This document shows, piece by piece, positions 59,883 to 60,836 of a DNA stretch of 64,000 bases. Source of the DNA: Chloroflexota bacterium (GTDB lineage: Bacteria > Chloroflexota > UBA11872); contig OZ252016.1 in assembly GCA_965247475.1 (NCBI GenBank), forward strand, positions 982,087-1,046,086, given 5' to 3'. Below the pieces are notes generated by a model that was not told the origin of the DNA, did not search any database, and worked only from the letters and a program-made list of their open reading frames with translations. Each line of letters begins with the position of its first letter. Position 1 is the stretch's first letter. The position numbers and the translations under genes were made by a program.

Positions 59883-60185
59883 CCGCGGCCGGCGCACCAG
59901 CGGTTCCAGCGGCAGACCATTGGCGCGGCCTGGGTCCGTGGAGTCACCGTCGGCATCGACCCCTGGGCAACGCGGGTGCGCGCCGATCTCGCGGGCGCCG
60001 GACCGTCTTCCGAGCGAGCTAACGGGGCGAGTATGATCTGTTGCCGTTCGACCAAGCCGTTCCGCTGCGCCGGGACGGCGCCGATTGCCCGTGTTGGAAG
60101 CGTCCCGTCAGGCGCTCGCCCGCGGCCTCGATCCGGGGCCGGGTCCCGCGCCGGGCGCAGTGCGACACGACAAGGAGCGAGGCCG

Positions 60186-60836
60186 GTGCTGAGATTTGCC
60201 GAAGAGATCATGCTGCTGCTGCTCGACGACGACGGCGGGGAGTTCGTGCGCGTCCCCGAGTGGTCGCTGTAGTGTGCCCTCGCGGGCGCGGTGCTGATGG
60301 ACCTGGCGTTGGAGAACCGCATCGACACCGACCTGGAACAGCTCATCCTGGTCGATTCCACCCCCGTCGGGGACGACCTGCTCGACCCGACCCTCGCCCG
60401 CATCGCGTAGGCAACCGAGCGGCACGACACCCGCTACTGGATCCAACACACGGCCCAGCACGCCAACCGTATTCGCGAGCGAGTGCTCGAGCGTCTCGTC
60501 GACCGCGGCATTCTCCAGCGTCGGGACGAGCGCCTTCTGTGGGTGTTCCAGTCGCGGCGCTACCCGGTGGTGGACGGCAAGGCCGACCGGGAAGTGAAGC
60601 TGCGGATCATGGCGGTGCTGTTCAGCGACGAGATTCCCGACCCGCGTGACATCGTCATCGTCTGCCTCGCCGAAGCCTGCGGCCTGTTCAGAGAGTTGCT
60701 GTCCCGGCGGGAGCTGGAGCACGCGACCGCGCGCATCGAACAGGTGCGCAAGCTCGACTTGATCGGTCAGGCCGTCTCGCAGGCCGTTTGGGACATCGAA
60801 GTGTCCCTGGCCATCGCCATGCAGCCGCCCATGTAG
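60186..60836 (+). pseudogene. GOLPH3/GPP34-family protein gene with two in-frame TAG codons and a frameshift at a poly-C tract
   Basis: RBS AAGGAG 11 nt upstream of GTG. FAEEIMLLLLDDDGGEF...ALAGAVLMDLALENRI... is a GPP34 signature. TAGs lie near 60270 and 60408. The frame changes at the C-run near 60361. Confidence 0.6.

Follow-up and report, generated by a model that had tools for sequence, protein, structure and literature searches.

The GPP34 family has been described as a marker of sponge symbiosis (Ferreira et al. 2025, Microbiome 13:4; PMC11706023). In that data set, 16 of the 20 bacterial phyla analysed had sponge symbionts with GPP34, and none of the 85 free-living relatives had the gene. 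It was present in 62% of the sponge Chloroflexota and in 97% of the Dehalococcoidia, with 1-6 copies per genome, and the genes were expressed in situ. Two forms were distinguished: the short GPP34_S, with a single domain, and a long one in which GPP34 is fused to cytochrome P450. By analogy with SidC and SidM, the authors proposed that GPP34 is secreted, binds PI4P and blocks maturation of the phagosome. Pseudogenes and RCC1 neighbours are mentioned nowhere in that paper (PMC11706023).

We analysed a GPP34 gene in a 64-kb stretch of DNA (hereafter the window) from a presumed Chloroflexota symbiont. The gene resembles the published GPP34_S in possessing one GPP34 domain and a length of about 216 amino acids, but differs from it in that the window copy carries two nonsense codons. 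No P450 gene was present among the genes scanned at this locus, whereas a P450 neighbour within five genes has been reported in Actinobacteriota (PMC11706023). The original prediction for this DNA had called the bacterial homologues of GOLPH3 uncharacterised; descriptively, that statement is outdated by the report of the family as a sponge-symbiosis marker (PMC11706023).

Outside bacteria, the nearest proteins of known structure are the eukaryotic Golgi protein GOLPH3 and yeast Vps74 (PDB 3KN1, 9QPQ, 2ZIH and 4TU3), with which the symbiont protein shares the Pfam family and the fold. An AlphaFold (AF2) model of P0001, an intact orthologue of the window gene product, was built with a 25-sequence alignment and showed a mean pLDDT of 89.4. 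When the PDB was searched with this model using Foldseek, the top eight matches were all GOLPH3 or Vps74 (probability 1.0, TM 0.58-0.71), and these two proteins were the only significant matches. Profile matches to solved GOLPH3/Vps74 chains had E-values of 1e-10 to 6e-12. There are also differences: identity to GOLPH3/Vps74 is ~20%, GPP34_S is without the N-terminal extension and without the long beta-hairpin insertions, and the cell that hosts the window gene has no Golgi. We know of no biochemical study of a bacterial GPP34.

In GOLPH3, PI4P is contacted by R90, W81, R171 and R174, and the substitution R90L abolishes binding (PMC3596250). We mapped these residues by a profile alignment to full-length GOLPH3 and followed them across 84 symbiont-type sequences (L001-L084). 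R90 corresponds to Ala33 in 81 of the 84 sequences, and W81 corresponds to Pro/Ser24, with a Trp two residues further on in 65 of the 84. R171 falls at position 94, which is non-basic and variable (Y/D/E/G/N). R174 is the sole contact kept (1/4), as Arg97 in 76 of the 84 sequences. As judged from this alignment, three of the four canonical PI4P pocket residues appear to be unconserved in symbiont-type GPP34_S, while the fold is common to both. Since these contact residues are lacking, the published idea of a secreted PI4P binder would have to be regarded as unproven. The function of the intact GPP34_S protein is presumed, and the phagosome-blocking model, with three PI4P residues unconserved among the 84 sequences, calls for a direct assay of lipid binding. 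As published, the PI4P-effector model does not take up the poor conservation of the contact residues.

The GPP34_S gene and its two in-frame TAG codons

Features of the locus are listed in Table 1. A GPP34-like protein, preceded by AAGGAG and a GTG codon and interrupted by ambers near 60270 and 60408, had been predicted from the DNA, and all of these elements were confirmed. With both stops masked, the 216-residue translation matched Pfam PF05719 (GPP34) with E = 4e-46 and 158 bits (cut-off 29.1), and the match spanned profile positions 2-198 of 201. GPP34 is the sole Pfam domain in the 216 codons, which gives the gene the short single-domain architecture. G+C content around the gene is 68-70%.

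Table 1. Coordinates of the GPP34_S gene and of the surrounding island in the window
Feature	Coordinates	Strand	Remarks
tRNA-Arg(TCT)	51955..52029	+	left border of the variable island
DDE_Tnp_1 (IS4/IS5-type) transposase	52253..53287	+	stands where conspecifics have two Exo_endo_phos genes
IS30-like transposase (HTH_38 + rve)	54211..55221	+	~360 bp 5' of the RCC1 start; not at this site in conspecific loci
RCC1-repeat pseudogene	55603..59882	+	orthologue of the intact 1803-aa ORF in L082 and L084
RBS AAGGAG	60173..60178	+	7 nt 5' of the GTG start; kept in conspecific and related loci
GPP34_S CDS, probable pseudogene	60186..60836	+	216 codons and native TAG; two premature TAGs, single frame
Premature TAG 1	60270..60272	+	codon 29; CAG (Gln) in 4/4 conspecific loci; window-private C>T
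C5 run	60361..60365	+	no indel relative to intact orthologues; frame unchanged
Premature TAG 2	60408..60410	+	codon 75; CAG (Gln) in 4/4 conspecific loci; window-private C>T
Residual ORF, 117 aa, C-terminal half of GPP34	60483..60836	+	P0170
RidA/L-PSP gene	61084..61476	+	intact; first conserved gene right of the island

The gene had been thought to start at 59976, which turned out to be merely the upstream limit of the longest ORF extension; the conserved start is the GTG codon at 60186. Both the RBS and the GTG start are unaltered in the window lineage. Positions 59976, 60186, 60270, 60408 and 60483 share a single reading frame. The CDS of 651 nt equals that of the intact orthologue, and its alignment to the conspecific locus L001 contains substitutions only. 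The native stop of the window gene is TAG (60834-60836), and TAG is also the native GPP34 stop in four of five relatives. A promoter/terminator scan around GPP34 found nothing, and the window holds no second GPP34 copy. The only piece of GPP34 on record as a gene product of the source contig (2,712,099 bp) is the 117-aa remnant P0170. This product and the nonsense allele were found on one contig only.

Origin and age of the two stops

A large protein collection contained 4628 homologues of the window protein. The best ten were 97-99% identical to it; nine of them consisted of 216 amino acids, and the remaining one (P0009) consisted of 215. P0001, the closest orthologue, matches the window protein at each of the 214 unmasked residues and carries Gln where the window has the two TAGs. 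The codons at 60270 and 60408 are CAG without exception in the four conspecific loci compared (L001, L082, L083 and L084). Based on these two lines of evidence, both stops are private CAG>TAG transitions of the window. The codons at the two positions are sense codons in every aligned relative (Q, R, E, N and others).

Employing the same four loci to set the polarity of changes, we identified five changes in GPP34 that are private to the window. Two are nonsense (C>T at 60270 and 60408), three are synonymous third-position changes (C>T at 60275, 5 nt 3' of premature TAG 1; G>A at 60740; C>T at 60788), and none is missense. Because the protein is otherwise the same as the intact orthologue and the other private changes are three synonymous ones, the inactivation of GPP34 is recent. 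In the region 59910-60892, GC>AT transitions make up 9 of the 13 private changes, which is the look of young mutations not yet filtered by selection.

The original prediction had attributed the premature stops in GPP34 and in the adjoining RCC1 gene to transitions that hit CAG or TGG codons while the locus decayed. The four conspecific loci bore this out: the changes are CAG>TAG at 60270, 60408 and 58026, and TGG>TAG at 56095. The exclusive occurrence of TAG is explained by codon usage, because the frequency of CAG predicts TAG-only stops. In the ancestral GPP34 there are 12 C>T routes to a stop codon, 9 of which lead from CAG to TAG; in the RCC1 gene, CAG accounts for 33 of the 63 C>T nonsense routes. 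Two other sources of such changes, a local (deaminase-like) C-to-T hypermutation and errors or hot spots at a methylation motif, were considered and rejected. Private substitutions in the flanks show an ordinary spectrum, and no motif is common to the sites of private C>T and G>A changes.

Two nonsense and no missense changes among five private changes would occur under neutral decay with an estimated probability of ~0.02 to ~0.19, calculated from site counts. The lower value applies if all four other changes arose after inactivation, and the higher one if only the second stop did. Such a combination is mildly unusual for neutral decay and would fit tolerated TAGs better, but the improbability is too small to outweigh the evidence for TAG as a normal stop in this genome (see below).

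Taken together, the locus is best explained as a young pseudogene of GPP34_S in one strain of a presumed Chloroflexota symbiont, a reading to which we assign a probability of about 0.8. Two C-to-T transitions would have converted Gln codons 29 and 75 (CAG) into TAG in the one assembled strain. With the RBS and GTG intact and TAG at codon 29, translation would start normally but yield a peptide of 28 residues instead of a functional GPP34. The GPP34 family itself is known already, as the sponge-symbiosis marker of 2025; what the window would hold is an ordinary young pseudogene of that family, with no unusual decoding.

The island between tRNA-Arg and ridA

In the conspecific loci, PFOR-beta and tRNA-Arg are followed, in this order, by two Exo_endo_phos genes, a large RCC1-repeat gene, GPP34 and ridA. 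Both Exo_endo_phos genes are present in all four conspecific loci and missing from the window (52030-55243, corresponding to L083 1036-3847), which has two transposase genes in this part (Table 1). Imperfect inverted repeats of 23 nt are located at 54171-54193 and 55174-55196.

The intact RCC1-repeat ORF encodes 1803-1804 amino acids with an N-terminal hydrophobic segment (L082 and L084). A 546-aa fragment from the window matched RCC1_2 with 266 bits over 10 stretches and WD40_RLD with 183 bits. That the adjoining RCC1 gene is a pseudogene, as the original prediction stated, is clear from its alignment to the intact protein, which breaks into four pieces in alternating frames. The TGG>TAG change at 56095 is followed by degenerate sequence, and the portion encoding approximately amino acids 152-523 has been lost. 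Further downstream there are the CAG>TAG change at 58026, a +1 insertion near 58841 and a -1 deletion near 59560, neither of the two being located in a long homopolymer. The four premature stops noticed in the two genes are indeed all TAG, but as a description of the damage this is incomplete, for RCC1 also has the frameshifts and the internal deletion. RCC1 is broken at other positions in L001 and L083.

Considering the state of the island in the five strains, the loss of GPP34 would belong to a wider, strain-specific breakdown of the small variable island between tRNA-Arg and ridA. Two IS transposases take the place of the two Exo_endo_phos genes, several lesions have arisen independently in the 1803-aa RCC1 gene, and GPP34 bears its two nonsense codons. 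We infer relaxed selection on the island in this strain. The strain would then represent a natural knock-out of the whole eukaryote-like island (two exo/endo/phosphatase genes, RCC1 and GPP34), which conspecifics keep, and a comparison of strain habitats could show whether persistence in the host depends on GPP34.

Among the effectors of Legionella, LegG1 is an RCC1-repeat protein, and SidC and SidM are PI4P binders. The conspecific island might be likened to Legionella-type eukaryote-like effector genes in that, flanked by a tRNA gene, it joins a GOLPH3-like gene, a large RCC1-repeat gene and two Exo_endo_phos genes. Unlike for the Legionella effectors, neither a secretion signal nor a secretion system was identified in this analysis.

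The suggested co-occurrence of GPP34 with RCC1-repeat genes did not extend beyond this species. RCC1-like sequence was present within 10 kb of GPP34 in only 4 of the 84 loci, all of them conspecific, so a conserved RCC1-GPP34 linkage was rejected. All-against-all ORF clustering of 85 loci revealed no conserved operon partner of GPP34; apart from shadow ORFs, the clusters contained only scattered housekeeping neighbours such as an ABC exporter, IlvD and a Nudix protein. The closest loci by GTDB species are from Chloroflexota MAGs. The 80 relatives listed (L002-L081) have GPP34 with 65-92% identity, and their MAG labels include Chloroflexota, Dehalococcoidia, Spirochaetia, Gamma- and Alphaproteobacteria, Acidobacteriota, Latescibacterota and Acidimicrobiia. 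Many of their names are in the style of sponge data sets (APA_ as in APA_bin, RHO, COS, Ca. Poriferihabitaceae).

Several further observations were made on the relatives. Between MAGs of different phyla among L002-L081, short GPP34 proteins are 65-80% identical and their gene neighbourhood is unconserved; this would fit horizontal spread of short GPP34 within sponge microbiomes. One homologue, P0088 (315 aa), has GPP34 fused to a Rieske [2Fe-2S] domain (PF00355, PF13806), and matches a rare architecture mentioned in PMC11706023.

The conspecific loci also vary on either side of GPP34. Two of them have an insert between GPP34 and ridA that is absent from the window (L082 10764-19277 and L083 10944-16889). 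Both inserts start with a ResIII helicase gene, and that of L082 also contains a nucleotidyltransferase/HepT pair, a DUF1828 gene and a gene for an N6_N4 methyltransferase of 1083 amino acids; the insert is a strain-variable defence island. Between RCC1 and GPP34, an extra gene is found in L082 (6829-9054) and L084 (8014-9054), with a Pfam GSDH domain in both and RCC1 repeats in L082. In L082, this gene is flanked by a direct duplication of ~230 bp, the single copy of which lies at 59910-60143 in the window, suggesting that the extra GSDH gene was gained or lost by recombination.

Assembly error, amber read-through and TAG as a stop codon

The main competitor of the young-pseudogene reading, though unlikely, is that GPP34 is intact in the cells. 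The T's at 60270 and 60408 (and at 60275) would then be consensus errors, or come from a minor haplotype, in a metagenome-assembled contig. Consistent with such an artefact, the allele is confined to one contig, with CAG at the two positions in every other conspecific assembly; the coverage of related assemblies is modest (13x-20x according to record names); and three private changes, all C>T on the same strand, lie within 140 nt of the 5' part of the gene. However, the housekeeping genes elsewhere in the 64 kb are intact, so the assembly is not generally error-prone. The private spectrum is otherwise ordinary, and the sites have no methylation-like motif in common. Moreover, the decay of RCC1 and the IS replacements represent independent structural damage that goes beyond point errors. 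Presumably, the mutations are real in the cells.

Less probable still is functional read-through, by which UAG would be partly decoded, most plausibly as Gln, by a suppressor tRNA (anticodon CUA) or a near-cognate tRNA-Gln, giving some full-length GPP34. If this were true, CAG>TAG would be nearly neutral, and GPP34 would be a functional effector gene of low output, not a pseudogene. Both stops did arise from CAG, no missense change occurred in the lineage, and neither the RBS nor the start is damaged. Within the family, positions 29 and 75 vary and tolerate many residues, such that read-through with almost any residue at these positions would probably yield an active protein.

The use of TAG in this genome (68% G+C) speaks against it. 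We selected 30 likely genes in the window by codon-position G+C and recorded their stops: 16 end with TAG, 14 with TGA and none with TAA. TAG, the commonest stop among these genes, was found at the expected ends of ndk, an ALS-like gene, genes for an M16 peptidase, a sulfatase and PhyH, and sucC-adjacent genes, as well as at the end of GPP34 itself. An efficient amber suppressor, which would lengthen about half of the proteins, is very unlikely. No tRNA with anticodon CUA was detected by ARAGORN or Rfam among the three tRNAs of the 64-kb window, and the in-frame TAGs are conserved in no relative. Amber read-through, against which the original prediction had wanted the locus checked, is not supported by these findings. 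The bases directly after the premature stops are T and G, which provide strong termination contexts in E. coli. Furthermore, the neighbouring genes decay by frameshifts and deletions, which read-through could not rescue.

We also screened the window for every TAG with coding-like composition on both sides. None of the candidates for a recoded TAG withstood inspection. Those at 46655, 46999 and 37812 represent, respectively, the ndk/sucC junction (ndk ends at TAG and sucC comes next in frame), the antisense shadow of that junction, and the junction between the ALS-like gene and the next gene. The TAGs at 44365 and 27086 are ordinary gene ends.

As TAG is a normal stop here, efficient suppression is argued against and a genome-wide use of TAG as a sense codon (by an alternative code or pyrrolysine-type decoding) is excluded: the sole point in its favour, that the four in-frame stops of the first reading were all TAG, is accounted for by CAG codon usage, several genes end at TAG where families or orthologues lead one to expect it, and homologues have Gln, not Lys, at both sites. 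Equally negligible is slippage or a programmed frameshift at the poly-C run, where the original prediction had placed a frame change; a C5 run is present and nothing more, the frame is continuous through it, and both the CDS length and the run are the same as in intact orthologues.

One of the three tRNA genes of the window is unusual. The tRNA-like gene at 30750-30826 (- strand) has an 8-nt anticodon loop, AUCCGUAG. ARAGORN reported it as tRNA-?(Arg|Thr) with a four-base anticodon (ccgt), a 3-bp D-stem and an encoded CCA; its Rfam tRNA score is 43.6 bits, compared to 71-74 bits for the two normal tRNAs of the window. Possible identities are a tRNA-Thr(CGU) with one C too many, a tRNA resembling frameshift suppressors and a tRNA gene in decay. 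It lies in a region (28000-36000) of lower G+C content, ~64-65% compared to 67-71% elsewhere, together with a DUF402 gene and genes for an M14 carboxypeptidase and a xanthine/uracil permease. This region may have been acquired separately.
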